A stretch of DNA of 63,776 bases, filler included, from Craspedostauros australis (lineage: Eukaryota), in the NCBI GenBank assembly GCA_030167865.1. It is 9 parts of 9 records of this genome, joined end to end, with 100 filler letters (N's around TTAATTAATTAA, not from the genome) between each part and the next. Parts side by side here need not be neighbours in the genome. Positions count along the whole stretch, not along the records: positions 27,646 to 34,811 come from JALAGF010004945.1; 8 more parts are not named here. One strand, written 5' to 3'. The notes under the pieces are model-generated. The model saw only the letters and a program-made list of their open reading frames with translations. It had not been told where the DNA came from and made no database searches. The position numbers were made by a program, and so were the translations under genes. Numbering within the stretch: the first letter of the stretch is position 1; each line of letters starts with the position of its first letter. Below are positions 5,384-61,798 of the stretch, piece after piece.

Positions 5384-6030
5384 TTACACACATGTGTTGC
5401 AAATGGATGAACAATCGCACTCATCAGTGGCTGGCTTTGCCTTTGGCATCGTTTTTTCCTGGATACAGGGCGATGGCAGTCTGGTGCCCATCCAACACAT
5501 GAACAAGAGCATCACTGCCGTTATCTGATCTCGGCACAACGCTGTCATACTATCATGTTTGCAGATGAGCACAATACTCCATTCGAATAGAACTGTAGTG
5601 CTGCAGAGCGTTCCACTCAATGATTGTAGAACATTATAGAGCAGAATGGATACGTTCAAGTTCGCACCGATGATCCATCTGGCCATTGGACACGTACCGC
5701 CACATTTCAACTACGTCGCCTCGACTCGTTCTCGACTCTGTCGTGCTATTGTCGGAGCGACGCGCTTCATCGTTCTGCGAACAGTCGAATTGAGATAAGA
5801 ATGCACCAGGGATGATGATGGTAGTGAATTGTTTTCTGGCTCCCGATTTTAGCATCGCATCAACAACCAACTCCTCTCCTCGCATGTGTGTGCGCGCACC
5901 ATTCCAACACCCATCTCTCTTCGCCTATTGGCTTTGATCTTGTGTAGTAACTGTTCTAATTCCTTTAACAAGGAATTGTCGGGCATCGCCCGACACTTGT
6001 TAAAACTATTTTTCACACGGGGAGGATCCC
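5384..6030 (-). mobile_element. Highly decayed CoDi-type copia reverse-transcriptase relic
   Basis: Fragments KELEQLLH, TTIIIPGAFL and LQSLSGTL occur in the same order as KELKQVH, TADVPGAFL and LTKALYGTL in the intact CoDi ORF at 29875. Confidence 0.45.
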
Positions 6031-6571
6031 TTGTGCTTGCACAATATCTCTCCAAGGATGGTCCTGGCATTTCACACACCGCCTTGACTGTCCACCACCC
6101 CCATCTAACTCCCCCCCCCACACACACACACACCATTCATCCACAACAAACTCCCGCTTCCTCACAAGCAGCCACCATCGCAGCTCATTGGGTGGCAACA
6201 CGCTTGATCTGGGGTCCCAATCATTCCTCTCGTGCTTTGCTTCTACCCGCGTCAGCTCAAGTAACTACGGTCGTCCGTACGTGCTCCACAATTCGAACGG
6301 TGATGGTACATCCGCGTGAGTACACGACAAGCAATCGACGGTTGTTGCGATACACGATCCTACATTCTGGAGTGTAGTATTACGAGCAACCACGCTCCGA
6401 TTGGTTTTCCTACGACTACTCTATTGTGGAACACGTGTACTTGGAAGAGGAGGATTGCATAATGTTGTTGTTGTGGTTGGCGTTGCTGTTGCTATTGGCA
6501 TTACGAAAGACCGTTCCGCTGTCTCACATGCAATCCATCCTCTCTATCCTTTCTCTCTCTCTCTTCTCGCT

Positions 6572-27545: not shown

Positions 27546-28527
27546 NNNNNNNNNNNNNNNNNNNNNNNNNNNNNNNNNNNNNNNNNNNNTTAATTAATTA
27601 ANNNNNNNNNNNNNNNNNNNNNNNNNNNNNNNNNNNNNNNNNNNNCGTCAGAAAAGCAAGACAGGCGCACGGAAAGGAACCCCTGAGACATGACCAATGA
27701 CGCCGTGCTGCATCGCGACGTTTTTTTTTATTTTATCGCCAAATAAATGAGTTACTCGAAGGAGTCAGAAAAAAAAACAACCCACTTTCGGGTTTCGGAC
27801 CGAAATGGGTGTTTTTTTTTTGCAACACGGGACATCGTGGAGGAATGTGGGACTTAAGTAGTACGTTGCCATTTTCGGCGACCTTCCGTTTGTCTCCACA
27901 GGCAAATGGGGGTCNNNNNNNCTGTGGAGGCAAATTGAGACTTCAATTTGCCTGTGGAGACAAGCTACGTAGAGTTTGTCTCCACAGACATGAAAACCCT
28001 CATTATGGATATCGATTGCGTACTTGTGAACACAAATAAAATGTCAAATAGAAAATCGATGTTTCGTGATTTTGTCATTGCATCGTTCTTTGCATGTTGC
28101 ACAGTGTTCTATTTCGTCTGTGAAACAGGAGGATGATTTGGACTTACGGAACAGAGAGTGATGTCACGATCAGAATTAACCTTCCGAATACTCGAACAAG
28201 TGAAAGCACACGAACCAACTCTTGCACAGTGTTTCAGTGACAGAAACGCGGAGGCATGGCGCCGGACAAGCAGTCTAAATGTGGAGATGCTGTCCTCTGT
28301 TTGTATGGTACGGTTTAATTGGTATCTACATACATTGGTACATCAACTATTGATGATACTGCGATGGGTACCAAAGGTCAACAAGGATGCGTCAGACCAG
28401 GGTGGGAGGCGACTGGGAAATTGGTCTCCCGCAGCTCCCAACGTCGGCCACCACGACACGGTGTCGAACCGATGATAAAATAGATAAGTGGAAATCATTT
28501 CACAACGGAGGAATAGAATAGTATATT

Positions 28528-28891
28528 TGTTACGACATAAGGTGCTGCGGAATCGAACCGCTCTGCCTACCAGGCCACCTTAGTCGAAACTGCTACTGTC
28601 TAGATACAAATACCTGTTCTGACACCCTTCCTATTGGTAACTAGACTAGCCCTTCAGCCCCTACCAGCCCTTCCGGCTACGTAGTCAGACCGCTCACACT
28701 CTATGTTTATCCTCCCGCTGTAGGGAGACGGCATTTCGTCCCAGTCGCCAACAAGGCATGATGTTTTCGAGGACTCGAACCCGCGACCTTACCATGTTAC
28801 GACATAAGGTGCTGCGGAATCGAACCGCTCTGCCTACCAGGCCACCTTAGTCGAAACTGCTACTGTCTAGATACAAATACCTGTTCTGACA
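28528..28891 (-). mobile_element. TRIM (miniature non-autonomous LTR retrotransposon), 364 bp
   Basis: Two identical 97-bp TG..CA direct repeats at 28528-28624 and 28795-28891. On the minus strand a TGG-starting PBS directly follows the 5' LTR, and the purine tract AATAGGAAGGG directly precedes the 3' LTR. Flanks are tATATT / cATATT. Confidence 0.92.
28805..28849 (-). ncRNA. Mini-tRNA-like structure inside the TRIM LTR (second copy at 28538-28582)
   Basis: Sequence TAAGGTG-GCCT-GGT-AGGC-AGA-GCGG-TTCGATT-CCGC-AG-CACCTTA forms a 7-bp closing stem, a small hairpin and a T-arm with a perfect B-box (GGTTCGATTCC). Confidence 0.7.
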
Positions 28892-29523
28892 CATATTATG
28901 ATCGTGCGAGTTGCTCCACAACATGACAGTCCGACCTGAAGTACTCCGCGAGTGCACACTCCATGTGCTTCGAGCAACGATGGATGGAGTATCATCGTCG
29001 CTGGTGTCATCACCAGCAATGCTATCGACATCATCGTTCTCCTCGTCAATGAATGATCGCGGACGACACGATGTTGGCGTCACAAGCTCAACGGCCAATA
29101 CGTGGAGACTCACCTTGAGAACAATCGATCGTGAAAAGGCCAGTCGGCACCTGTCACGTGATGTACGAGCATCGTGGACATTGACAACAACCCGCACTGC
29201 GCCACGCTACCGATGCTGCCACTACCAAACCAAGGCCAACGACCTGCAAAAAACGAAACAGCGCAAAGCATCATAGCACAACTCCGCTCATCTTCGTTGC
29301 AAGGTGAGGCGAGGCGAGATGTGACGAAACGAAACACGGCAGAACACGACGAAAACGAAACGAAACGAAACGAAACAGGTGTGACAACACAACACGATGC
29401 ATGATGAGACGGAACATGAGATCATGAGGGAAAGGCGTATTCTGGCAGCTCCATCCAACCATCTCTTCGAAGCTGTGTTCATAAAATGAATGAATCCTCT
29501 GCACAAATCAAACTTCTATCGCA

Positions 29524-32500
29524 TGTTGGTGCAGTAGACTCTGAGCGGAACAAAACCGCCGGAATGGAATCCGGACGGAGCAAGGACGCGAATGCCAACC
29601 ACCGATGCAAATCAACGGCTGGGAGCCATCATCAACATCATGCTGCGCAGCACAAGGCAAACAGCAAGAAGATGGCGAACAAGAACAACAAACAAGCAAA
29701 ACAGGCAAAGCAAACAAAAGCACACAAACTTGTGTAAACTATCTGATTACACCACCCACAACAATCTCACTTCTCTGCTTCTAGTCTATCGCTCCGGTTC
29801 ATTGCCGGGTTGGGACTGTGGCAAGAGTTGTTGTTTCAACATAGTTTACACAAGTTGCCCGCTCTATCACTGCGATGAGCAAAGAAACCAAGCCCAACCC
29901 GACAAAGCCCAAGGGCGGCGTTGGGAAGGCAAACAACCAACCCAGACGTTATCCGACGCCCCGCAAGTCCACGTTCACTGGCGCGTGCGAAGCACTCGAT
30001 GGACGTATCTTTGACTGTTCAGCATCCCGCACTAAGCAGGTGCTCCAGTACACAAAGACTCTTGACGCCATCGTGATCTACGCTGGAACAATGTACAGCC
30101 CGTACGTGCGAAAGGCCCTCGACAACATGGAGCCAACGACCTTCGATCCACCAGTTCGATACGCGAACGACGCGGACGACTACACCAAGGACCTCTGGAG
30201 GGCTCAATACAGGACGTACAGCGCACGAGTGGAGAACTACAACACCAAGATGATGGAGGTCTACGCCCTCATCCTCGGACAGTGTACCGACCTCATGCGC
30301 AGCCGTTTGACTGAGTCAACTGGCTTTGCCGCTGCCAAGTCGGCGCAAGACCCACTCAAGCTCCTTGAAGTCATCAAGAACGTGTCGTTCGATATCAACT
30401 CCAGTGAGAACATCGCCGTCACCATCTACAAGGCAATCAAGGCGTTCTACGCGATCCGCCAGACACCTCATCAGCCACTCCTTGAATACTACGAGACGTT
30501 CCTCTCACAGATCGAAGTCAACAAGAGCATTGATGCCAACCTTACTGGACATGATGGCCTCAACGACATGGCCGTGGAGCTGTCGGCACACGATGAACTG
30601 ACCGATGACAATCGGGCCAACATCCACGCGATCCGACGCGAGCGATTCCTTGCAGTCGCATTCTTGGAGGGCGCCGACCAGGGACGCTACGGCAAGCTCG
30701 TCGAAACCCTTCACAATGACTACCTCCTGGGCAGCAACAACTATCCAAGTGGCGTGACCGATGCATACAAAATGCTTGAGAACTTCCAGAACAACCCCAA
30801 GTACAACTCTGAACCTGGCGGTCCAAGCAACAAGGGCGCGGCCTTTGCCACCGTTAACGGCGCCAACAGCAAACCAGCAGGCACCGACGCCAGCACTCTC
30901 GTCACCGCAGGTGCGCCACACGGAGCCAACGATGAAGGAGATCACAACTACCACAACTACGCGCTCAACCAGTCGCCCAATCCCATCCCGGACACATGGT
31001 GGCTGCTCGACAACCAGTCAACGGTCGACATCTTCGCTGATGGTGGATATCTCTACGACATCCACGAGGTCGATGAATACCTCACTGTTCACTGCAACGC
31101 CGGGACAGCAACCACCAACCTGATGGGCACTCTCCCAGGGTACGGCGCAGTGTGGTATCATCCTGACGGAGTGGCCAACATACTCTCGCTCAGCAACATC
31201 AAGGATCGTTTCCGCATCACGTTCGACAGCGCTGGTGACAACCGGTTCATCATCCACAAGCCGGACGGCACCACCAAGGCCTTCGAAGAGTCCAGCTCTG
31301 GCCTCTACTACCATGACACGACAGTGTACCGCGGATCTGTCCTGGTGACTACTGTAGCGGGTAACAAGTCTAAGTTCTCGTCTATCGATTACTCACGTGC
31401 TCAGCTTGCCCGTTCTGTCCAGCAGCGCATTGGTCGTCCGTCCACTCGCAACTACATCAAGTATGTAAACAACAACATGATCCAGAACTGCCCCGTCACC
31501 AGTAAGGACATTCGCAATGCCGAGCTCATCTTCGGTCCTGATCTCGGATCACTCAAAGGCAAGACGGCTCGCACCACATCACCGCAAGTGCAAGCAGAAA
31601 TCACTGCTTTGCCCTTCTCCATCCTGCGTCAGTATCAGGAAGTCACACTCTCCGTGGACATCATGAAGGTGAACAAGATCCCATTCCTCGTCACCATTGC
31701 AAAGCACATCAAGCTTGGCACTGCTCACAAACTAGACTCCGAGTCTAGCACATCCATCACCAAGAGCATCATGATGATCGTGCGGGTCTACCAACAGCGT
31801 GGATTCAAGGTGGTCATGGTCCTCACCAACAACCAGTTCGAGCCCATCCGCGGCGCACTCGCAGCAGCAGGGACAGCGCTCAACGTCACAGCTCGTGACG
31901 AGCACGTCCCAGCAGTTGAGAGATACATTCGGACTATCAAAGAACGCACCCGCAGCATGTACAACGCGCTGCCATTCAAGCAGTACCCGCCAGGCCTCCT
32001 CATTGAGATGGTATACACCGCTGTGTACTGGCTGAACATGTTCCCGCATCACGACGGGATCTCCAAGCGAATGAGTCCGGCTGAGATTGTGGTTGGACGC
32101 AAGCTTGACTTCCACAAGCACTGCAAGGCGGAATTTGGAACGTACGTGCAGACGCACGAACAGCATGACAACAGCATGCATCCCAGAACCATCGCAGCAC
32201 TTGCACTGCGACCATCTGGAAACGACCAGGGAAGCTACCACTTCTACAGCCTTCTCACCGGAAGGATCCTGCACCGTAACAACTGGACGGAGTTGCCGAT
32301 GCCAGATGCTGTGATTAAACACGTTCACGATCTTGCCAAGCAGAAGAAAGGCCAGAATGACATCGTGTTCACAGATTCACACGACAACATCGTGATGTTG
32401 CCGACCATCGGTGCAACCAAGGACGATCCCAATGACGCAGATTACGATCCAGATGACGAATCTGAGGCCAGCGAAGAGTCGCTTGATGCTGACATCGAGT

Positions 32501-34811
32501 CAGATGAGGATTCCAATGACGATGACTCGGACGGCGATGATGCCGATGATGATGATCCAAACGATGCGGACTACGATCCCGCTGATGAGTCGGAGGCCAG
32601 CGACGATCCGCTGGAGCTCTATGTCGGCGCAGAGGGCGGCAACGATGATGATGATGAAGAGGAGGAGGAGGAGGAGGATGAGGAGGCGGATGACAGTGGC
32701 AGCGATGATGACAGCACCTTTGTCCCGAGTGACGCGGACGAGGACGATCACGACGATGATCACGATCCTGATGCTGCTGGACTTGAGCAAGAGGAAGCCG
32801 GCGCACTCTTGCCCGCCAAAGAGACAATGGACCAGCCAGCCATTGATCCGCTGATCGCACCCATCCATGACGTCGTGCACGAGTTCGTCAACGAAATGCA
32901 AGCTCGGCCAGGTGGTCCCAATGATCCAGGAGTGGACGGCGCTGCCGATGAACAGGAACCGGAGCAGGAAGGACGCCGCACTCGTGGAGGACCGCGACCT
33001 GACTATGCCAGGCTGCACAACGTGGGCACCACCGACACAGGAGCCCATGCAACGATGGTGCAGGTGTCAACCAATGCGGAGGACAAAGTCTGCGATGAGA
33101 AGGTGGGATACACTCTTCTCACCGAGCAGATGAATTGGAAGAGAGGCCTCAAGCTGTTCAACGAACGCGGAGAGGATGCAATCAGCAAGGAGCTGAAGCA
33201 AGTGCATGACATGGAAGGATTTGAGCCAAAGCATTGGCATCAGCTCTCCAAGGACGAGCGTCGCAAGTCGCTGCGATACCTCATGTATCTGAAGGAGAAG
33301 CGCACCGGTCTCATCAAGGGACGGGGGTGTGCGGACGGCCGACCACAGCGGCTGTACATGACCAAGGAGGAAACCAGCTCCCCCACCGTCTCCCTGCTCG
33401 GACTGATGCTCACATGCATTGTCGATGCACACGAAGGGAGAGACGTTGCCACCGCCGACGTCCCCGGAGCATTCCTTCAGACCACTTTTGACAAAGGCGA
33501 GATCGTGCATGTCCTCATTGAAGGACGCATGGCTGAGCTACTTGCCAAGATCGCTCCTGATGTGTACAAGAAATACGTCAACCAGAAGCGAGGACAATCG
33601 TCCATCTACGTGCAGCTGACGAAGGCGCTGTACGGAACCCTCAAGGCCGCACTTCAGTGGTGGAAGGATCTGACGACCACCCTCGTGGAAGATGGATTCA
33701 CCATCAACCCATACGATTGGTGCGTGGCCAACAAGGACGTCAACGGCAGCCAATGTACTGTCGTCTGGCATGTCGACGACCTGAAGATCTCTCACAAGGA
33801 CAGCTCGGTCGTCGACGATGTGCTCCAGATGCTCAGCGAGGCATATGGCAAGCACAGCCCGCTCGCTGTCACCAGAGGCAAGGTCCATGACTATCTTGGC
33901 ATGCAACTGGACTTCTCCAATCCCGATCAGGTGCAGATTGGCATGAGCGAGTACATCAATGGCATTCTCGAAGGAGTACCGGCAAACATGCATGGCAAAG
34001 CCACCACGCCAGCAGCTGAGCATCTGCTCGACATCAACGAGAACAACCCAGTCAAGCTGGATCAGGAGACAGCCGATCTGTTCCACCACACCGTGGCCAA
34101 GCTGCTGTTTCTGTGCAAGCGTGCACGACCAGACCTGCAGACCGCAGTCGCATTCCTGTGCACTCGTGTCAAGGCACCTGACGAGGATGACTACAAGAAG
34201 CTCACCCGCGTTATCAAGTATCTCCGTTCCACCAAGGATATGACTCTCACTCTTGGAGGGTCCTCGCTCGAGAATGTGCAGTGGTGGGTCGACGGATCCT
34301 TTGGCGTGCATGGCGACATGCGCAGCCACACTGGAGCACACATGTCCACCGGGGCCGGCACCATCTACGGCGTGTCGACCAAGCAGAAGCTGAACACCAA
34401 GAGCTCAACGGAAGCCGAGCTCGTTGCCGTGGACGACGTGATGCCGCAAGTGCTCTGGACTCGATACTTCCTCGAGGAGCAAGGCATCAAGGTGGAGCCA
34501 ACCACCATCCATCAGGACAATCAAAGCACCATGTTGCTTGAGAACAACGGCAGGGGCTCAAGCGGCAAGAAGACGCGTCATATCAGTATGCGCTATTTCT
34601 TCGTCAGCGACAGGATCAACAAAGGACAGATCTGTGTCAAATACTGCCCGACCGACGACATGATCGGCGATTTCTTCACCAAGCCAGTGCAGGGATCCAA
34701 GTTCCGCAAGTTCCGTGATCTCATCCTCAACCGCACAGAAGCCAATCCAACCAAGGCCAAGACCTACAAGCAGGCCCTCATTGGATCGAAGGAGTGTGTT
34801 GGTGCAGTAGA
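29524..34811 (+). mobile_element. CoDi-type Ty1/copia LTR retrotransposon, nearly complete (3' LTR cut by contig end)
   Basis: The 5' LTR is 29524-29841 (TGTTGGTGCAGTAGA…TTCAACA). The same start recurs at 34797-34811 after the purine-rich GAAGGAGTG. There is a single gag-pol ORF. Confidence 0.95.
29875..34811 (+). CDS. Copia Gag-Pol polyprotein (Gag, protease, integrase, RT, RNase H)
   Basis: Protease WLLDNQST; integrase VDIM…HVPAVER; RT DVPGAFL, KALYG, HVDD; RNase H VDGSF, SSTEAE, QDNQS, DFFTKP. Domain order is copia-type and the ORF reads into the 3' LTR. Confidence 0.95.
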
Positions 34812-36363
34812 NNNNNNNNNNNNNNNNNNNNNNNNNNNNNNNNNNNNNNNNNNNNTTAATTAATTAANNNNNNNNNNNNNNNNNNNNNNNNNNNNNNNNN
34901 NNNNNNNNNNNTCTCCATCTTCCGTGATTCCGGAGACCTTGACATCGCCCATGTCACCTTACGTCAAACGACCCCAATACCTGCCACTTTCACCCGCGGA
35001 ACGGTGGCAGATCCTGCAAAGGATCGGATCTCCTCCAAACCAAATCAAGAAAGCCATCACNNNNNNNNNNNNNNNNNNNNNNNNNNNNNNNNNNNNNNNN
35101 NNNNNNNNNNNNNNNNNNNNNNNNNNNNNNNNNNNNNNNNNNNNNNNNNNNNNNNNNNNNNNNNNNNNNNNNNNNNNNNNNNNNNNNNNNNNNNNNNNNN
35201 NNNNNNNNNNNNNNNNNNNNNNNNNNNNNNNNNNNNNNNNNNNNNNNNNNNNNNNNNNNNNNNNNNNNNNNNNNNNNNNNNNNNNNNNNNNNNNNNNNNN
35301 NNNCAACCAATCGCCATCGTATACGAACGTGATGAAGCGTCGTCTCGATTCCGACATCGCAAGGCACATCCAGTCCGTGCCATTTTAATAGCATGCCCAT
35401 GCTGTCCTTGCGCAAAGGGAGATCCACTCGGAATCACTCAAAGCAATACACTTGAGTGCAATTGCAAAATGGGATGGGATAGTGTGGTGTGGCAGTAACA
35501 GATAACATCACCTCTCTCTCTCTCTCTCTCTCTGGTGTTGCTTGACGGAGGTCGTCCGAGTACTCAATCTCTTGCGTCGACACCACGATCACAACAGTAA
35601 GAATCAACAACGAATGAGGACAGAATCAAGGTGTTTCGAAAAGTGCGGGACTTGTGCCATCTTGTGCGCACGCATTCTTTTCTCCTTCAACTTTATCACC
35701 GGAATCGTCGCGACCACCAATGACGTAGTTTTGTTCGGTGGAACTCTAATTGCTTGGTGAGCTGATTCGTCAGTTGAGTTCTCTGGACAGAATCTGTGAC
35801 TTTTCGCGTGTGCTTGTGGAGTCATCACACCGTTCGCGTTTGTCTGTCCCATAATTATCATTGTCACTCAGACAAGAAAAGGCATCGCAACAAGATAGCG
35901 AAGATGGAGGTGTCTTGCGCACAATTTGCCTGTCCGAACAACGCATCCGATCAACACCATGACGCATGTCACGAGTTGTGGTACCCACACGTTTTGTTCC
36001 TCCAACCTTCCCACAACCAGTCTGCCTCCAACACACACAGAGAGGGGACTGGAGCGTCTGATCATTCACAAGAGGGCGCGAGTGTCGGCACGGTATGGAA
36101 CTGCGTTTCTGGGAATGCCAAACGCATAGCCACTCCTCAGCCAGGTCATTCACCACGAAGAAAGCAACGACTGCTGTGGCGACATCATCATCCTCCTCCT
36201 CCAAAGAAGACAGTCAGAGCACCATCTCTCCAAGAGCGCGATTATTCGCACGAGTAGATAGTGATAGATAGAGACCCCCGCATCCTCGTACCTCCGTTCA
36301 TGCCTCCATTCGTACCTGCACTCACTGCCAACAAGTCAATCACAAACAAACGAACCCGATGCG

Positions 36364-36954: not shown

Positions 36955-37129
36955 AACCACACAATCAAGTGCTGGTCGAATAAAAAGAAGCACGCCCGAC
37001 GGACCCTGATAATATGCGCTTAGAGAGTGNNNNNNNNNNNNNNNNNNNNNNNNNNNNNNNNNNNNNNNNNNNNTTAATTAATTAANNNNNNNNNNNNNNN
37101 NNNNNNNNNNNNNNNNNNNNNNNNNNNNN

Positions 37130-41169: not shown

Positions 41170-41375
41170 TATCAGCACAAAATCGAATAGTGCTAAGTAC
41201 GTTACTCCTGTAGCCCCCACTATCTATAAATTTCACTTGTGTTCGGTTCAGCAATCGCATCGCCTGTAGCTCAACGGTAGAGCACCAGTAATTCTAACTG
41301 AGGTTCCAGGTTCGAATCCCGGCATGGTACTTTGCTTTTGCTCGCCCCTTGTGATTTTTCAATAGTGCTCTAATA
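41170..41375 (+). mobile_element. 206-bp solo-LTR-like insertion carrying a tRNA-like sequence, 5-bp TSD GTACC
   Basis: GTACC occurs at 41165-41169 and 41376-41380. Termini TATCAG…CTAATA form an imperfect inverted pair. Removal restores the LINE peptide GHGYHGHRL. Confidence 0.85.
41260..41330 (+). tRNA. tRNA-like/pseudo-tRNA (nominal anticodon TTC, but non-canonical loop and mismatched acceptor stem)
   Basis: D-arm TA-GCTC-AACGGTA-GAGC, anticodon arm CAGT/ACTG with a 7-nt loop, T-arm CCAGG-TTCGAAT-CCCGG. T-runs lie downstream and TATAAAT lies about 35 nt upstream. Confidence 0.65.
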
Positions 41376-42935
41376 GTACCCGTGGCCCAGAGCTAACTCC
41401 GTCAGCGCTCTGTCGCCTTGCCTCTGTGGTATCATCGCCAGGGTGTTTTCCTGGATGTGGAACCTGGCCTCCTGTATGTCGCCCCACAGGTTGGAGATCC
41501 AACAGGGAGTGAGAGCATCTCGGAGGAGATGATGGGGGTGGTCAAAAAGGGAGCCTGACACACCCACTTCGTCTTTGAGGGCCTCTATCGAGTGCTCGAT
41601 CATCTTCCCTGTCGGGGTTGCCGCATGGACCTCCAGGAACATGGCCTGCACCTGTCGTACAACTTGGCGCCTCCAGGGATTCGGAATCCCAAGGCCTCCT
41701 TCGGCGACTGGTGCATAGAGAACTGTGCGGGGAAAAGTGCGCATCAGCTTCATCTTGGGGAGCGCGGCTTGCAAAGCTGGGGCTGTGATATAGTTCCATT
41801 GGTTGGGTGTTAGTTGCACCGCAGGCATCATGTACTCAATGGACTTCATAAACTGTAGTACCAGAGCAGTTTTGGCCTTGCTGGGGGACACTTGGGCCAC
41901 CCTCAGCTTTTCAGCAAACAGCTCTGCCTTCCAGTGAAGGGTGCTGACTTGGACATCGTTGCGACCGTCGAGAGAGATAGCCACGCCCAGCGTTTCGACT
42001 GGGTCGGTGTGACGCTTCCTTGAAATAGTGGCTCTGTCTTTGCCACTGCCTTGAATGTCCACGATGCCGTCTACGTGTGAGTCCTCTGCCCACCATTGGC
42101 CTGACTCGAAGGAGAAGTGAACTGCCCACCACGCAGATTTGGCGGGCACGATGGCGCCGCCCGTGGCTGCGAGTAAGCCGCTCCATTCCTCGATCATGGC
42201 TTGGAACTTCTGGAATCCCTCTTCCGGAGATTCTCTGGCCTTGGAGACACGGACGAGGTCTGTGTCGTCGACGAATGCGGACCCCAATACTCTCATCGGG
42301 GAGAGGCTGAGAGGCGCTCGAAGCACCGACTCATGCCCCTGAGCTTGCATTGCCTTGAACATTACGGAGCTAAAGGCTGCGGTCATACTCAGAGTAGCAT
42401 TCGCTACATGGGGACCAAAACCTGCACGCCGAACTCTAGTCAACATACAACATCGCATCCAGCTCCAATAACAGCATGAACTGACATGGTATTACACATG
42501 CAACGCATGCTACACACCAACCCAATAGTACACATATCTTGTGATATACTCTACTCCTGACTTTCTGCACTACCATTTGCTCTTCAGCTGTATGATCGAC
42601 CACTGGCAACAATGCACTCAACGGCCGGACAGTCGCAGACGTGCATCTTTGCAGTGTGCAAACGTGCATTGACGCCACAAATTGAAATTTTGTGGGTGAG
42701 CAGAGGTGCGCGACGTTGCGCACACAATTCGCAACGCGCTTCCAACAAGTCTGCGCAACTGCAAGGCACGGGAATTCCGTTGAAACTGACACTCGATCGC
42801 ACTTGACCAAGACGACCACTCCACAAACACAATCACGATTCGACTACAGCGACTAATATGCTCGACCAGTAGAAGAAAATATAACGTCTATAACCGTTAT
42901 TGTTTTAAAATCCGAACACCAGGCTAATCGCAAAT

Positions 42936-43146
42936 AAACGTTGAAACTAATGACGAAACGTTGAAACTAATGACGAAACGTTGAAACTAATGACGAAACG
43001 TTGAAACTAATGACGAAACGTTGAAACTAATGAAGAACCGTTGAAACTAATGAAGAAACGTTGAAACTAATGAAGAAACGTTGAAACTATCGGCGAGGTG
43101 TTGAAACTATCGGCGAGGTGTTGAAACTAATAGAGAGCCGTTGAAA
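42936..43146. repeat. 20-bp tandem array (AAACGTTGAAACTAATGACG and variants), about 11 units
   Basis: GTTGAAA recurs exactly every 20 nt from 42940 to 43140. Confidence 0.95.
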
Positions 43147-43173
43147 GCAGTCACGATTCATTCGTGAAGCCTT

Positions 43174-45266
43174 GTGACACTCCAGATGAAAAATGACGCA
43201 CGTAATTTGATCGAGGCGATGTCATCACACAACAGGGCAACGGCGGAAAAGCCTCCATTTCTGTTCGTGTTTTGTTGGCGCTCTTGCCATCCACTATCCA
43301 TTATCCATCAGTCATCATACAATCGAACAAGACAGGAAGCCCAACAAGCTGGGCAACGAGCACCTAAAGAAGGCATTGAGGCGGAGGCAGCGAGGGAAGC
43401 CTTGTCGCAACCATCGCGAGCAGCAGAGGATGGCAGCGAGGGAGGAACCACCACAACAACCATGAGGAGAAGGGGACGGCAGCGAGGCGGAGGCAGCGCG
43501 AGCAGCAGCACTGCAAGAATCGCCAGCAGCAGGGGGCAGCAGCGAGGAGGAGACAGCGAGAGCACCACCACCGCAACCGTTGCAAGCAGCAGAGGAAGGC
43601 AACGAGGCAGAGGCAGCACGAGCAGCAGCACCACAAGCATTGCAAGCAGCAGGGGACCGCGGCGAGGCGGAGGCAGCGAGAGCACCACCACCGCAAGTAT
43701 CGCAAGCAGCAAGAGCAGCAACACCGCAACAATCGCAAGCAGCAGGGGACAGCGGCGAGCCGGAGGCAGCAAGAGCACCACCACCGCGACCATTGCAAGC
43801 AGCAGAGGGCTGCAGCAAGGCGGAGGCGGCGAGAGCACCACCACTGCGAGCATTGCAAGCAGCAGACAGCTGCCGCGAGGCAGAGGCAGCGAGAGCACCA
43901 CCACCGCAAGTATTGCAAGCAGCGAGAGCAGCAACACCGCAACAATTGCAAGCAGCAGGGGACCGCGGCGAGCCGGAGGCGGCAAGAGCACCACCACCGC
44001 GACCATCGCAAGCAGCAGAGGACCGCGGCAAGGCGGAGGCGGTGAGAGCAGCAGCACCGCAAGCAGCAGACGGCTGCAGCGAGGCAGAGGCAGCGAGAGG
44101 ACCACCACCGCAAGTATCGCAAGCAGCGAGAGCACCACCACTGCGACCATCGCAAGCAGCAGACAGCTGCCGCGAGGCAGAGGCAGCGAGAACACGACCA
44201 CTGCAACCACCGCAAGCACCAGAGAAAGGCAGCACGATGGAGGCAGCGAGGGCAGCAGCACGGCAACCCAGAAATCAACCGAAACTGATTTCTTGGGGCA
44301 CCATGAAGTGCTCACACTTGGCCTCAAGTATGCCGGTTTCCGTCAGGAAAAGATGGCAGATCGCACGATGCAGACTCGCTTTGCTGCAACGTACGGACTG
44401 TGCCCTGAAAGCTTTGCTTCCCTCTTCGTGGATCTCTTCAACAGCCAAACGGCACAATTCAAACGTCCGCGTCCGCGCGATCTCTTTGTTGTCTTGAACT
44501 GGCTGAAAACATACTGCACAGAGCATGTGATGGCTGGCCGATGGAATTTGGATGAGAAGACTATCCGTGGTCTCATCTGGTCGTACTTGCCAGCTATTCA
44601 AGCCCTGCTGCCACAAAAGGCAAGTGTGACAAAGGGAATCTTGTGCTGGAATGCTTCTTTCATTTCCTTCTCTCGAACGAACTCTCTCACATGTTTCTCT
44701 TCTTTCTTTTCATTCTGGTACACCATCAATAGGTCATCTGGCCGCCAAACACAACAGAACTTGCAGGAGACGATAAACACTTCATCATCACTGTTGATGG
44801 TGTTCACATCAGGATCCAAGAACCACGGATGGACCCAGGAACCAAGTGGTACTCTCACAAGTCTCACTCAGCTGGTTTGACGTATGAGCTCGGGATATCC
44901 CTGGCAGAGAGCAAGCTGGTGTGGATCAATGGGCCATTTCCAGCTTCCACTTCAGATCTGGTGATGTATCGCAAGCCAGATGGTCTCAAATCCAAGATCC
45001 CACCGAATGCCCTGGTAATTGCTGATGGGGGGTACAACAATGAGCCTACAATCAGTGCCCCAAATCCGTGTGATTCTGCTGCTGTGAGGAAGTTCAAGAA
45101 TCGAGCAAGAGCACGGCATGAGAGCTTTAACGGAAGAATCAAGAACTTCCAAGCACTTGCGAATGGGTACCGCAATCAACTGAGCAAGCATCAGTGCCTA
45201 TTTGAGGCCTGCTGTGTTTTGATTCAGTACGAACTCGACCATGGCCATCCAATATTTGACATCTAA
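43174..45266 (+). CDS. ISL2EU/PIF-Harbinger-type DDE transposase with low-complexity repetitive N-terminus; GC-AG intron 44620-44732; start uncertain
   Basis: HTH-like region WLKTY.TE…AGRW. After splicing: ITVDGVH…EP, WYSHK, YELGI, WINGP, ADGGY and RARHESFNGRIKNF (D-D-E). Confidence 0.88.
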
Positions 45267-48414: not shown

Positions 48415-50511
48415 GGCCATTGCGCTCACGATCACTACCACACCCGGAGAAAATTAACAATAGTAGGAACTCAACACTCTGCATGTAATTAACTATCAAT
48501 CATCTTCAATGTATTTGGTTTCAGATATGATTGCTGGTTCTTGTTGTGTGTGTGCTGTGGTGTCCGTCTCTGTGCAGATCTGGGCGCGCGATGCACCACA
48601 CTCACTTGGCAAACCGATAGCACGAGTTGTACAGTTTTTAGATCTCCAGCGTGGGATTAGTCGTGTTGCGTAGCCCAGTCTGGAGCAAAATTGCAATCCA
48701 TCCCAAAAACGCTTATGATGCTATATCGCAACACCACATCATCTACAATTAAAACTAAGTGTACCATGTGAACAACTCGTTGGTTGCGAATAAGAATATT
48801 GGACTTAAATTGAAATTGACTTCAAATTTAACATCATTTTGTTGCCAACGTGCGATTGTGTGTGGCGCAAAATTCTGGATGGGACCATGCTGCCGTTGCT
48901 TTGCCATCCAAGACGATGCCCATGAATGTCTCATTTCGTTCACTTGCACACCTCATTGTCTCCATATACCCCATTTGTATCCATCCCTGGCAAGCATGCA
49001 CCAGTGTATCTCCCTTCAATCCGCATTGTCAGCTCACTGCTGAAAACCAACACCTTGACAATGAGGGTCGATCTTCACACAGCCGCTTCATCCGACCATA
49101 CCTCCTGTTCACAACCATCTATGTTCCTCCTCCCCCAAGCATCATACCTCGATCCCTGATTCATTGAGGGCATGTTGATGCATCCTCCAATGCCTCAGGA
49201 TGTATCTCTGCATTTCAATTCATCCCGATGCTGGTACCATGGCCAGCTTTCTTTGTCTCGGAAATGCGACTGCCACATTTTCTTGATTTCCACCTCTCCC
49301 ACTCAATCGAACCAATCCCCACTTCTCCACCCCATTCCCGACTTGATGATGAAGACATCTTATATGGGTCGTTTGGCAATGTGATGGATGTTCACATGNN
49401 NNNNNNNNNNNNNNNNNNNNNNNNNNNNNNNNNNNNNNNNNNTTAATTAATTAANNNNNNNNNNNNNNNNNNNNNNNNNNNNNNNNNNNNNNNNNNNNAA
49501 GAAGCACATCACTCCAATGCAGCGAGGAGATGGACATGATTCGCGAGGAACTCCGGCTTGCCAAACTCAAGCGCAACTACCACGATCTGCGCCTTCAGGA
49601 ACTCAATCTGAAGCTTCAGGTTGCTGAGGCGAAGAAAGAAATGGAGGAAGCGCATCACAATCGCTCGGAATGAAGGCATTGGGTGTCCAACTTTCACATG
49701 CGTGGATGGATGGAGAGGTGGAGCAATGGGGAAATCGGAGAAGGGGTGTGTATGCAGGATCCGATCGGTGGTGCCACTTTCAGGTGGGGTGGACATTCTG
49801 AAGAATATTTGAAGAATGTAATACAATAGAACAGATCACAGTTTGCACGGGCATGCGACCTTCTCTCTCCCATTAAGACTTCTGGATATGATCGTGCACT
49901 AGCTTACGAATGGTGTTTCGTGAATGCTTGTCGAGTTTGCGATAGTCGGAGCAGGTAGATACCACCCTCTCCACAAACGCAGATCGCAGAATACACGTAC
50001 ACGCCATAGGATGGTGCGAGTGAATGGCGCAATTCAAACGACGAACAAAGAAACAGAAACCTTGACCACTCTCAACGCAGTTTTGGTCCGTTGAGTCGAA
50101 CCTCCTTTTCCGTCCACGCAATGCGCGTGTACGCACGAAGGAGGCAAGTTCGCGAAATTGATCTGCATCAAATCATCAGAAACCAATGCGGATTCAAATC
50201 TCCATCAATGAGAAGTGCCATGCACATCGGCACCAAGTCACTTCAAGACCGCTGCTCGATGTCCATCGTCAATCATAACGGACACAGCAACAGCAGCAGA
50301 AGAAGCAACAGAGAGGCATCACACACCAATCGCCGCGTTGATCTTCCAACTTCACCTGCCCAGAAGACCGACGTTCAAACTTGTTTTCTTCTGTTTCGTC
50401 TTCATCGCTCGCAACTGCATCCACGAAACAAGAGCCAGTGCCATCGTCGAACATAGAACAACGTATGCCATCAAAGAAGACACTCAAACAGTACAAATCC
50501 ACTCCTTCACG

Positions 50512-54407: not shown

Positions 54408-54507
54408 NNNNNNNNNNNNNNNNNNNNNNNNNNNNNNNNNNNNNNNNNNNNTTAATTAATTAANNNNNNNNNNNNNNNNNNNNNNNNNNNNNNNNNNNNN
54501 NNNNNNN

Positions 54508-56911: not shown

Positions 56912-57409
56912 ACTGTCAAGTAGGTAACCCATTGGTCGTACCAAGCTCACACACTACTCACACATGACTCACACATGACTCACACATGGCTCACAAATGG
57001 CTCACACACAGCTCACATACAGCTCACACATAATGGTTCACGCTGTGGATAATCCAAAATGCAAGGCACAGCCATTTCCATCACCCACCACATAATTCAC
57101 ACTGAGATGTGTGCAGTCACAGCCCATGCACACACTCCAACCACCTTGCACACTGACAACATGGTTGACAATGGTCGACACACAGTTCTGCAAGCTATAT
57201 ACGACTCACTCTAACCCTATGCATTGTACAGGAATGGCCATCACTCAACCCACAACAACAACTGGCCAATCTCGACCCCCAGCACATGCACACACTCCAA
57301 ACACTGCACACACTGTCCAAATGGTTGACACATGGTTGGAACATAGCTCACTCATGATGTTGCAAGCCAAACACAACTCATACACCCATAATGCAATAAA
57401 CATCAATTG

Positions 57410-60360
57410 CCATCATTAACGGCACAACACACATTGGCCGATATCTATTCTTATACCCCACCCCCAACCACGCAACTAACTCCTAAAAGTATTGCCCAAC
57501 CAAACCCTTGATACCAATTCATCGCACATTAACCCTTGATACAAATTCATCAGCCATTCACCCTTGCCACAAGTTCAACATGCTGGAACCCTTACCATCA
57601 CTCACGGCACAACACACATTGGCTGATATCCATTCCTATACCCCACCCCCAACCACGCAACTAACTGCTGCAAGTATTGCCCAAACTAACCCTTGATACC
57701 AATTCATCGCACATTAACCCTTGATACCAATTCATCGCACATTAACCCTTGATACAAATTCATCACCCATTAACCCTTGCTACAAGTTCATAAAGCCCCA
57801 ACCCTTTTCATCACTCACGGCACAACACACATTGGCTGATATCTATTCCTATACCCCACCCCCAACCACGCATACCCTAGCTAACTCCTAAAAGTATTGC
57901 CCAACCTAACCCTAAACCGATACCAATTCATCACACATTAACACTCTAACAAATTCATCACATACTAACCCTTGATACAAATTCATAACACCCTGACCCT
58001 TGCCATCACTCACAGCACAACACACATTGGCTGATATCCATTCCTATACCCCACCCCCAACCACGCAACTAACTCCTAAAAGTATTGCCCAAACTAACCC
58101 TTGATACCAATTCATCATCGATTAACACCCTAGCCCTTGATACAAATTCATCACACAGCAACACCCTAGCCCTTGATACAAATCCAACACACATTAACAC
58201 CCTAGCCCTTGATACAAATTAGTCACACAGCAACACCCTAGCCCTTGATACAAATTCATAACACCCTGACCCTTACCATCACTCACAGCACAACAAAAAC
58301 TAGCTGATATCCATTCCTATACCCCACCCCCAACCATGCATACCCTAGCTAACTCCTAAAAGTATTGCCCAACCTAACCCTTGATACAAATTCATCACAC
58401 ATACACACACATACACGTGCTCACACACACACACTCACACTCACTCACACACCCAAAATGGAATGCACAGCAACTGCCATCACTCACTGCACAGCACCCA
58501 CTTGCAGTCACTTCCAGCTTCTCTCTCAACACCTCTGATTGCAGTAGTCACACATCCAACAACGCCAGGAGGCGCCCCACACCACATATGACATGGCAGA
58601 AGCATGGCGCATGTGGTTGGCAACTCCATGATGCTCGTTGCCACACTCAAAGATGGATCATGATGGATGATGGATGATGGATGATGGATGATGGATCACA
58701 ATATCTCACACATGCAGACACTTCCGGCCCCTCTCACAACACCATCAGCTGTGATACTTGCACATCTCACAACGCCCACACACGCCCCATGGAACGTACA
58801 ATGCACAATACACCACATCCATATCACATCTGGTCAGAAACGACATGATGCTCGTTGTCACTGTAACAGTAACACTCAAAGATGAACCAAGATGGCTCAC
58901 AAAATCACATGCTTGCAGATACAATACTAACCCTAACCCTAACGGCTAACCCTAACTCTCACAACACGATCAACTGCACTAATCGCACATCCAACATCAC
59001 TCGCACATGTTTGATGGCACGCATGACATGGTACATCCGTATCACATGCGGTCGGCAACTCAAAGATACTTGTTGTTGCCTTCACACTCACATGTGGATC
59101 ATGGTGGAGCACAATTTCACACACATGCTGTCATTTCCAGTCCCTCTGCAAACACCATCTAATGCAGTGCATCACATATTCAACATTGTATGCACACGCT
59201 CCATAGCTATAGCACGTACAGCGTACAGCGTACAACGTACAATACACCACCTCCATGTCACACGTGGCTGGCAACTCCACAATGTTCGGTGTCACAGTCA
59301 CACTCAAAAGATGGACCATGATGGATCACACAATCTTGAATTATGCAGATGCTTCTGGCCACTCTCACAACACCATCAACTGCGATACTCGCGCACCCCA
59401 CAACGCTCACACACGCACCATGGCACATACAATACACCATACACAATACATCACATCCGTATCATATGTGGCTGGCAACTCCAGGATCTTCAGTTTTGCA
59501 CACAAACCTGGACCATGATGCATGATGGATCAGAATAATATCTCACACTTGCACACATTTCCAGCTAACCCTAACTCTCTCACCACCACCAATTGCGGTA
59601 ATGGCACAACCAACAACGCTCACACATGCCCCAAAACACTCATGACACGATACAAGCGTAGCACATGCGGCCAGCAACTCCAAGATGCTCATTGTTACTG
59701 TCACAGTAACACTCAAAGATGGACCATGGTGGATCATGTTGGATCACAATAATATCTCACAATTGCAGTCACTTCCAGCCCATGTCTCAACACCATCAAC
59801 AGCAATATACTTTACACATCCAACAATGGCCGCACTCGCCCATACCATGCATGACATCGACCAAGTGTATCACATGCGGCCAGCCACCCCAACGTGCTCA
59901 TTGTCACACTCAAAGATGGATCATGATGGATCGTGTTGGATCACAATAATATCTCACAATTGCAGTCACTTCTGGCCCATATCTCAACACCTCCAACTGC
60001 AGTAATCACACATCCAACAACGCTCATACACACTCCAAAGCTACCTTGACATGGACCAAGTGTATCACATGCGGTCAGATACTCCATGATGCTAGTTGTC
60101 ACACTCCAAAGTGGACCGTGATGGAGCAAAATAATATCTCACACTTGCACACATTTCCAGATACTCTCTCACCACTGCCAATTGCGGTAATCACACATCC
60201 AACAACGTTCATACACGTCGCGTAGCATGCATGACATGATACACGCGTGGCACATGCAGCCGGCAACTTCATGATTTTCATTATCAGACTCAAAGATGGA
60301 CCATAATGCATAATGGATCACAATGTTTCACACTTGCAGTCACTTGCAGCTCCTCACTCA
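57410..60360. repeat. Complex degenerate satellite (about 190-300-bp units), CpG-poor, with CCCTAA-like motifs
   Basis: TATACCCCACCCCCAACCA recurs five times in 57450-58340. CAAAGATGGA.CATG…GGATCACAATA recurs in 58590-60330. CTAACCCTAAC occurs near 57905, 58930-58955 and 59565. Confidence 0.85.
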
Positions 60361-61009
60361 CTGGCCAACACGCACACACAGACGGTGCACACAGTGCACA
60401 CACACTGATCACGCAGTTCCCTACAAGCTTGAATGGCCAAATCACAACACGCTGCCCTACAGTGCCCATACACTGCCCATACACTGCTCACAACAAGGAA
60501 ATGCACGAAAACCCAAGATACAGCATCACTAATAACCCCTAACCCTCCATACACGAGTAGCAAAGACACACAAGACACAAAAGACACACAAGGCACACAA
60601 GGCATGCACAGAGACAAGGCCATGGCACAACATGTCACCAACTGCTCACTACACACCCATGTATGATAACCCAAAGTACAATAAAACCAGGGCAATTTCC
60701 AGCACCCATCATACACTAAGACACTGCTCACTACAGGCCAAAGCACGATAATCCAGGACACAAAAGCATCACCCTAACAATTGACAGCACCAATCATACA
60801 TCAAGACGCAGCTCACTACACCACAATGCACAACAACCCAAAAAGAATGTTGCTCATAGCCCCCAACACACTGGCAGCAAAAACACGCACACACAAGCGC
60901 CCGAACAATGCCCACAAAGCCAAAACTTGATCACACAACATGCCAATGCACGATAACCCACAATACAAGGACGATACTACACCCTAAGACACACATGAGC
61001 AGCAATGGC

Positions 61010-61262
61010 ACGCACTCACCCTTGCACTCACCCTCGCACTCGCACTCACCCTCACCCTTGCACTCACCCTCACCCTCACACTCACACTCACCCTCACCCT
61101 CACCCTCACCCTCGCACTCACACCCACACCCACACTCACACTCACACTCACACCCACACCCACACCCACACTCACACTCACACTCACACCCACACCCACA
61201 CCCACACTCACACTCACACTCACACTCACACCCACACTCACACTCACACTCACACTCACACT
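61010..61262. repeat. Hexamer microsatellite (CACACT/CACCCT/CACACC)n
   Basis: Directly visible. Confidence 0.95.
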
Positions 61263-61798
61263 GACACAGCAAACAACGCACAACGACTGTACACACACTA
61301 CACAACACAGACTACACACTCACATTCACAACGCACAACAAACGACGTACAGACCAATGACTGTACACACACTACACAACACCCAAACGGACAAAGGGCA
61401 GACCAATTATCCACACTACAATACACTACGGACAACGCACGGACGCTAATGTACCACCCAATTCACCATTTCCCGCAACTCCCAAATGTACCACCCAATG
61501 CCCATTTCCCACACCTCCCAAAATACCCCTAATCAACCCAAAATAGTGACAAACTTCAACACCCCACAGCTCGCTCAATATCCACCCATTGACAAAAGCG
61601 AGCGTCACTACAGGTGCCCAAGAGCCCGCTCCAAACCACCAACCACCAAAAAGCCAAAAATAAAAACGAATTATTGTTCAGGTTCCGGCTTTTATAAANN
61701 NNNNNNNNNNNNNNNNNNNNNNNNNNNNNNNNNNNNNNNNNNTTAATTAATTAANNNNNNNNNNNNNNNNNNNNNNNNNNNNNNNNNNNNNNNNNNNN

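Follow-up and report, generated by a model that had tools for sequence, protein, structure and literature searches.

A 365-bp element (98 + 169 + 98) in the 63,776-nucleotide (nt) stretch of Craspedostauros australis DNA analysed here (hereafter the window; assembly GCA_030167865.1) is a TRIM (terminal-repeat retrotransposon in miniature), recently inserted in nuclear eukaryotic DNA, and each of its long terminal repeats (LTRs) holds a degenerate module that is plausibly derived from transfer RNA (tRNA). The element is most likely primed by a host tRNA, and the complementarity between the LTR module and the primer-binding site (PBS), which an earlier note on this DNA had taken as a sign of a private tRNA-mimic primer, is in our view probably a by-product of the tRNA-like character of both pieces. 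The TRIM call itself is supported, as it combines identical LTRs, a PBS that starts with TGG, a purine tract, a 5-bp target-site duplication (TSD) and a second LTR junction in public data. On the minus strand, the direct-repeat pair consists of two copies of 98 nt with 100% identity and a start-to-start distance of 267, beginning (G)TGTCAG and finishing GTAACA, and hence with TGT..ACA ends. Base 98 of the LTR, at 28625 and 28892 in the window, reads G on the element strand and is common to both copies, and when the LTR is counted as 98 nt the TSD is perfect over 5 bp (ATATT); the identity of the repeats was thus noted correctly, while the length of 97 bp given at that time applies to the TG..CA version, without the shared G. 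The stretch directly past the 5' LTR is TGGTAAGGTCGCGGGTTCGAGTCC (28771-28794), and the bases upstream of the 3' LTR are AATAGGAAGG. Short terminal direct repeats enclose a short non-coding interior in an element of less than about 1 kb, in which the PBS adjoins the 5' LTR, the purine tract adjoins the 3' LTR, and the TSD is within 4-6 bp. Among the open reading frames (ORFs) listed at 80 or more amino acids (aa), just one overlaps the element, namely 28847-29206, which looks spurious and enters from the flank. Among three public runs, X1 alone covers the stretch, X2 and X3 giving no cover; X1 is possibly the source data of the assembly, and its contig depths do not equal copy numbers. A 297-nt contig of X1 is identical to 28528-28824 (0 differences), and in a separate X1 contig of 212 nt the LTR end is linked to another flank, so that at least one further LTR junction exists. 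No second copy of the element was found in the window by blastn at word size 7, nor any other LTR-like pair by a window-wide repeat scan, and LTR-core patterns gave 0 matches in viral contigs, 0 in metagenome contigs and 0 in prokaryote genome contigs.

Table 1. Coordinates of the TRIM and its parts, counted along the window.
Feature	Start	End	Strand	Remarks
Target-site duplication, left copy, ATATT on + strand	28523	28527	.	identical to 28893-28897
3' LTR, 98 nt	28528	28625	-	100% identical to 28795-28892; 97 nt if shared G at 28625 goes to purine tract
tRNA-like module of 3' LTR	28538	28582	-	7-bp stem, GCCT/AGGC hairpin, 4-bp T stem with TTCGATT loop; B-box match 28549-28559
Internal region, 169 nt	28626	28794	-	between both LTRs
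Polypurine tract AGGAAGG, then G at 28625	28626	28632	-	adjoins 3' LTR; read from sequence
Second B-box / T-arm-like motif GGTTCGAGTCC, AGGTC before it	28771	28781	-	reads as sense tRNA variable loop + T arm
Primer-binding site TGGTAAGGTCGC	28783	28794	-	from first base past 5' LTR; sole exact match in window
5' LTR, 98 nt	28795	28892	-	direct-repeat comparison
tRNA-like module of 5' LTR	28805	28849	-	its 3' half (T arm + CACCTTA) also able to pair in cis with 28771-28794
Target-site duplication, right copy, ATATT	28893	28897	.	identical to left copy

The module occupies LTR positions 44-88 (45 nt) and reads TAAGGTG GCCT GGT AGGC AGA GCGG TTCGATT CCGC AG CACCTTA, with TGTCGTAACA directly on its 3' side. 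Both this sequence and the structure assigned to it before, namely an acceptor-like stem, a small hairpin and a T arm, the last with a perfect B box of RNA polymerase III (Pol III) type, were reproduced exactly on the minus strand in both LTRs; the B box, GGTTCGATTCC, is indeed perfect, and the RNAfold optimum for 47 nt is that same structure, at -16.8 kcal/mol. This 47-nt fold is unremarkable in stability (16 of 200 shuffles as stable, z -1.41), the fold of the whole LTR has a z of -2.47 with 5 of 200 shuffles as stable, and in the LTR fold the acceptor-like stem runs past 7 bp, through a one-base bulge, into CGAC/GUCG and further flank pairs. The motif GGTTCGANNCC is found five times in the window against 0.44 expected, a number reached by 0 of 100 shuffles, and three of the five occurrences are inside the element. 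The A-box-like string claimed for the module, TGGCCTGGTAG, is present but compressed, being 7 nt from the B box, where A-B box spacing in tRNA genes is about 32 nt. TGGCC, directly followed by TGG, together with GGTTC fits the letters of the TRGCY/YGG/GGTTC signature of the TRIMs known as Helenus, with TGGCC/TGG in compressed form. The module departs from a tRNA in that its T stem has 4 bp, the loop of its D-like hairpin 3 nt and the gap from A-like to B box 7 nt, as well as in a 2-nt AG bulge on the 3' strand, which is continuous in a real tRNA, and it offers neither a cloverleaf nor the continuous 12-bp acceptor/T-arm helix with one free discriminator by which a processed tRNA or mimic would be recognised. 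A TATA-like GTATTTGTATC is located about 25-30 nt upstream of the module, and on the element strand no T run of 4 or more occurs before window 28480, 48 nt past the 3' LTR.

In the PBS, TGG is followed by TA, so the primer should end in CCA and have A73 and U72; in eukaryotes, U72 is a typical feature of the initiator tRNA. The perfect 9-nt match pointed out earlier is real, since CCA placed directly after ...CACCTTA gives 9 contiguous anchored pairs with the PBS, 6 of them templated, and so is the pairing beyond it, where interrupted pairs continue through the T arm: the last 26 nt of the CCA-tailed module and the 24-nt PBS region form a duplex of -29.5 kcal/mol, with a 1-by-3 internal loop after the first block. 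When the next base (U) is retained as the discriminator, the anchored pairs drop to 3. Local alignment of the LTR with the internal region is not significant in either orientation (sense 21, 85/500 shuffles; antisense 24, 25/500 shuffles), and its local alignment against the flanks is not above shuffles. The same parts can also pair in cis, as a hairpin from the LTR T arm to the PBS region (85 nt) reaches -29.8 kcal/mol and z -3.09, with 0 of 200 shuffles as stable, and a cmscan alignment recovers this LTR-PBS stem; with the whole module included (107 nt), the LTR-internal stem wins, at -35.3 kcal/mol. The PBS region consists of AGGTC and GCGGG-TTCGAGT-CC, a canonical sense T arm, whose reverse complement is not a canonical T arm, and AGGTC is the commonest variable loop of tRNAs. 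Because two sense copies of a near-palindromic T arm, each standing after TAAGGT, always look complementary, the apparent LTR-PBS complementarity can be accounted for by these copies. The idea of a private primer is weakened, since the CCA is needed directly on the last paired base, without a discriminator, and since the pairing is also explained by the cis hairpin or by a PBS region that is a sense tRNA fragment. A PBS complementary to an anticodon loop, in the style of copia/Ty5, was also considered and set aside, as no register with a plausible anticodon loop was seen by eye.

Two further folds of the element were computed. One involves LTR positions 14-34, to which the last part of the internal region, GCTAGTCTAGTTACCAATA, is complementary (28588-28656, minus strand), an arrangement that places the purine tract and the LTR start in a hairpin loop; as a notable structure this hairpin was rejected, its energy being not significant (z -1.32, 22 of 200 shuffles equal). 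The fold of the whole element has a z of -3.98, a value that is discounted because two self-complementary LTR copies pair trivially.

The explanation that we favour, and consider rather probable, is that of a TRIM of the Helenus/TRIMp3 kind, copied in trans by copia-type machinery and primed by a host tRNA, with the LTR-PBS pairing as a by-product. The LTR module would have descended from a tRNA, or from a tRNA-derived short interspersed element (SINE), without its anticodon arm, and its role, if any, would be that of a TFIIIC/Pol III promoter element, a promoter remnant, or an RNA structure in R-U5. Copying in trans would be carried out by a copia-type reverse transcriptase and integrase, and mobilisation of this type is suggested by the 5-bp TSD along with the copia elements of the window, namely a copia-type polyprotein at 29845-34811 (plus strand, 1655 aa to the contig end, RVT_2 E 8.4e-14) and a second copia-type RVT_2 fragment at 61970-63409. 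Minus-strand synthesis would start at TGGTAAGGTCG..., where a host tRNA with A73 and U72 would provide its CCA end as the primer. Both the module and the PBS region would be sense tRNA-like pieces with near-palindromic T arms, from which their complementarity would follow, and the two pieces may form a U5-PBS hairpin in the genomic RNA; U5-PBS stems are known in retroviruses.

A number of results weigh against this explanation. As regards the primer, no host tRNA fitting the PBS was found in the window or the searched collections, and the tRNA-like sequence at 41265 in the window has a 3' end different from the PBS-fitting one. The collections were searched with a tRNA pattern that combined GGTCG on the 5' side (positions 3-7), a T loop and CGACCTTA at the 3' end, and which demands Watson-Crick pairs at 3-7 as well as a canonical T loop and so misses variants. 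It had 69 matching loci among metagenome contigs and 37 among prokaryote genomes, approximately the chance level by a rough estimate, and ARAGORN recognised 0 tRNA genes among these 106 matches, in collections that are poor in eukaryotic nuclear DNA; the sole ARAGORN gene at the loci (1 of the 69 in metagenomes, 0 of the 37 in genomes) is on the opposite strand and is not the match. Since the collections hold few eukaryotic nuclear genomes, this outcome favours neither a host primer nor a self-encoded one strongly. As regards the machinery and the relatives, the window and the viral contigs yielded no autonomous partner that shares the PBS or the LTR ends, the viral contigs contained no copia relatives, and when four motifs of the element were sought in the Helenus supplement DataS1, three had 0 matches and the fourth, tggtaagg, had 1, inside an unrelated internal region. 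As regards the pairing, the hexamer ACCTTA appeared anywhere in the LTR in 311 of 20000 shuffles, so that the exact 6-nt match to the PBS is probably not pure chance and would be unlikely if LTR and PBS were unrelated. Finally, the LTR module goes unrecognised as a tRNA, with 0 tRNA genes in the window by ARAGORN and no match of the Rfam tRNA model to the LTR at E up to 10, and A and B boxes just 7 nt apart make Pol III promoter function doubtful. The Rfam tRNA model finds the degenerate tRNA-like sequence at 41265-41324 (29.9 bits), which serves as a positive control; as no tRNA call was made on the module by ARAGORN or Rfam while this control worked, the module is at most a heavily cut-down derivative of a tRNA.

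The silence of the tRNA models also lends itself to another explanation, which we regard as unlikely, in which the element is a plain TRIM driven by RNA polymerase II (Pol II) and primed by a host tRNA, and the T-arm-like hairpins, either not tRNA-derived or too decayed, are structures of R-U5 and the leader. It agrees not only with the detection of 41265-41324 by a model that passes over the LTR, but also with the fact that the sole Rfam match on the module at E up to 10 is a 15-nt T arm (8.8-10.7 bits), with the moderately unusual fold of the LTR, and with the TATA-like string upstream of the module. What it leaves without an account is that GGTTCGANNCC occurs within 267 nt in two different versions, both perfect and both with a T loop of the canonical 7 nt, given the expectation for the window cited above, one of them coming after AGGTC and the other after a TRGCY..YGG string.

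The earlier note had proposed a private primer matured by host tRNA enzymes. On that model, the LTR module, transcribed by Pol III or excised from a longer RNA, would be trimmed by RNase P and RNase Z and CCA-tailed, and the resulting mini-tRNA of about 48 nt would anneal to the PBS of its own element. The top half of a tRNA would then have been kept in the LTR because host enzymes excise it and add CCA to it, and it would anneal to TGGTAAGGT... and prime reverse transcription. We judge this to be very unlikely. The anchored pairs and the duplex energy reported above speak in its favour, as do the retention of an acceptor-like stem and T arm with the anticodon arm absent, the lack of a canonical tRNA ending in CGACCTTA among the 106 pattern matches from the searchable collections, and the low chance of the ACCTTA match; in addition, U71-U72 is unusual in elongator tRNAs, and an anchored match of 9 nt is within the length range of working PBSs. 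The private primer nevertheless lacks support, because just 6 bases are templated before the 1-by-3 internal loop, no discriminator is available in the fitting register, and the module does not have the geometry of a minihelix. RNase Z normally leaves the discriminator base, and the U that would be kept reduces the anchored pairs to 3. The T stem has only 4 bp, the AG bulge interrupts a 3' strand that must be continuous for the stacking of acceptor and T arm, and the stem is extended by CGAC/GUCG flank pairing, unlike a pre-tRNA. Further points against this proposal are A and B boxes 7 nt apart, no T run of at least 4 until 48 nt past the 3' LTR, and an ordinary 47-nt fold. Moreover, the case concerns a single family, and no model calls the module a tRNA. 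In the portions of the Helenus paper available to us, LTR-PBS complementarity is absent from the described families (PMC10886601).

The stable and unusual cis hairpin, whose stem cmscan aligns as well, suggests a different kind of self-priming, resembling that of Tf1, in which the U5-side ...CACCUUA folds on the PBS, a nick frees a 3' OH, and TGG is a plain templated sequence. Self-priming of the Tf1 type is established in fission yeast, where the transcript is primed by its own extreme 5' end, the first 11 nt. Here, the likely 5' end of the transcript resembles the PBS and does not complement it, and the complementary strand ends 13 nt upstream of the paired PBS bases, from which the first DNA would be 13 nt with a strand-transfer repeat of about 10 nt; since the LTR-internal stem is also preferred once the whole module is folded, we find this mechanism scarcely credible. 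Equally hard to believe is that there is no mobile element at all and that the pattern is due to an assembly artefact or to local duplication in tandem of 267 bp (1.37 units), as might be supposed from the single copy in the window, the 100% identical LTRs and a draft of short contigs with N linkers, given that TGT..ACA ends, TGG, purine tract and a perfect 5-bp flanking duplication all coincide, that one X1 contig links the LTR end to another flank, and that another matches LTR-internal-LTR exactly, even if X1 is possibly the source data of the assembly.

The TRIM is situated in a window which is a chain of short contigs, separated by eight N44-TTAATTAATTAA-N44 linkers (13163-13262, 18038-18137, 27546-27645, 34812-34911, 37030-37129, 49399-49498, 54408-54507 and 61699-61798), so that neighbourhood across the linkers is meaningless; the contig of the element is 27646-34811. 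The nuclear eukaryotic origin of the DNA follows from a full-length gene for the U2 spliceosomal small nuclear RNA (5911-6100, plus strand, 114.6 bits) together with long open frames for ankyrin and trypsin proteins. The polyprotein at 29845-34811 has 1544 relatives, and one among the 120 listed carries the label CCRYP_, which we take to be that of the diatom Cyclotella cryptica; judging from this labelled relative, the host is probably a diatom or a relative of one. Upstream of the polyprotein there is a 16-nt perfect inverted repeat pair, AACTTGTGTAAACTAT / ATAGTTTACACAAGTT (29727-29856), which may mark an LTR of about 119 bp, TGTAAACTAT...ATAGTTTACA, of the copia element, with the 3' LTR beyond the contig end. 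The sequence past this candidate LTR, CAAGTTGCCCGCTC..., seems to match, as a complement, the D-arm/anticodon-stem portion of a tRNA and not the CCA end, and the copia element, 950 bp from the TRIM, has an apparently different PBS, of the internal-tRNA type. The flank just downstream of the TRIM (28306-28515) is repeated in X1, where variant contigs have depths of 133-214 versus 16-26 for the other flanking pieces, and a B-box-like GGTTCGACACC at 28460-28470 (minus strand) in this repeated flank is a further T-arm-like motif in the same orientation as in the TRIM; the TRIM may be nested in another tRNA-related repeat. The degenerate tRNA-like sequence at 41265-41324 (plus strand) scores just above the gathering threshold of 29 bits in a local alignment without acceptor ends, has 4 of 7 acceptor pairs by eye and no ARAGORN call, and is followed by CTTTGCTTTT, with a T run at about 41335-41339; a tRNA pseudogene is likely here, or else the head of a SINE derived from a tRNA. 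Other repeats in the window include a 20-nt tandem repeat, ACGAAACGTTGAAACTAATG, of about 14 units (42893-43172), a 60/93-nt periodic repeat (43368-44270) within a 570-aa open frame (43168-44880) that has no Pfam match, and diverged, satellite-like tandem repeats of about 185-213 bp in several overlapping families with 61-92% identity (57400-60310), after which low-complexity sequence of the CACACTCACAC type is present at 60977-61306.

Among known systems, mascRNA-type tRNA mimics and acceptor/T-arm minihelices share with the module an acceptor-like stem and a T arm whose T loop is canonical, which in principle RNase P, RNase Z and the CCA-adding enzyme recognise. It differs from mascRNA-type mimics in its 4-bp T stem, the 2-nt bulge on the 3' strand, the lack of a free discriminator in the PBS-fitting register and a stem that runs into the flanks, and Rfam finds on it no gene of the tRNA clan beyond the 15-nt T arm (E up to 10). 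With Tf1 the element has in common that the PBS can pair, as a hairpin, with a complementary stretch located before it in the same RNA; unlike in Tf1, where the transcript start is the primer, the complementary strand (LTR positions 83-88) is found 13 nt before the paired PBS bases, and TGG opens the PBS in the manner of elements primed by tRNA. Two further readings of the LTR, as that of a Cassandra or of a retrozyme, were rejected, Rfam giving no 5S match and no hammerhead ribozyme match to the LTR at E up to 10.

The closest likeness is to Helenus, which makes the earlier statement that no such case is known outdated, at least as far as TRIMs with tRNA-like LTRs are concerned. In the sections of Kojima (2024) on which we draw throughout, Helenus comprises TRIMs of 311-1263 bp with tRNA-derived sequence in their LTRs, from fungi, animals and Selaginella, and forms, with the 5S-bearing Cassandra and Ajax, a proposed class with Pol III promoters named TRIMp3; in the fungal and plant families the TSDs measure 5 bp and mobilisation is attributed by inference to copia (PMC10886601). 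Pol III transcription from the LTR is proposed there for Helenus; for Cassandra, a role of this kind for the LTR fragment is shown. Kojima also raised the tRNA-like sequence as a possible primer and rejected it, as no complementarity to the PBS was found in Helenus (PMC10886601). By the author's own account Helenus is polyphyletic, and thus the absence of a sequence relation does not bar the structural label (PMC10886601). The element described here has two short LTRs, a PBS, a polypurine tract and no coding capacity, at a size within the range of 311-1263 bp, and, as in Helenus, the 3' part of its LTR contains a tRNA-like piece, one whose letters fit TRGCY/YGG and GGTTC. Its 5-bp TSD agrees with the copia-dependent fungal and plant families, and its internal region has a T-arm-like string, as do several Helenus internal regions in part 1 of 10 of DataS1, for example that of Helenus-2_PGr-I, according to our reading and not Kojima's. 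On the basis of the same sections, it differs in that its host is probably a stramenopile and not a fungus, an animal or Selaginella, in that its tRNA-like piece is far shorter (45 nt, no anticodon arm), escapes detection by tRNA models and is not followed by a T-run, in that none of its motifs was found as such in the published Helenus sequences by motif search, and in that LTR-PBS complementarity, reported as absent there, is present. Cassandra, as portrayed in that paper, is similar in having a fragment of a small-RNA gene in both LTRs of a TRIM, with Pol III transcription as the proposed logic, and different in that its fragment is 5S and not tRNA-type and in its confinement to plants.

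Judged by title or abstract, none of the listed papers on self-priming LTR retrotransposons describes an LTR-encoded primer, and among the papers listed for TRIMp3/Helenus since 2023, those on retrotransposons, judged by title, comprise besides Kojima only a citing sugar-beet paper and a meeting report. The PBS string and its complements gave, among the papers listed, what look like incidental matches in work that is unrelated by title and abstract, and a term search of a paper on diatom retrotransposons (PMC2806351), in the text available, returned nothing on primer-binding sites, tRNA or TRIMs, 'PBS' occurring there once, as the name of the buffer. The element is most likely of a kind already described, that of Helenus, with LTR-PBS complementarity as its one unusual feature. 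It adds a probable stramenopile or diatom lineage to the few hosts of TRIMs with tRNA-like LTRs, and does so with an unusually short tRNA remnant. If the pairing were functional, this would be the first known case of a retroelement that provides a tRNA-like primer for itself, the priming of this TRIM would be independent of the host tRNA pool, and the system would be a living parallel to the tRNA-like genomic tags at the ends of replicating RNAs. If it is not functional, the element illustrates how near-palindromic T-arm sequence, present both in the LTR and next to the PBS, can be a source of apparent primer matches.

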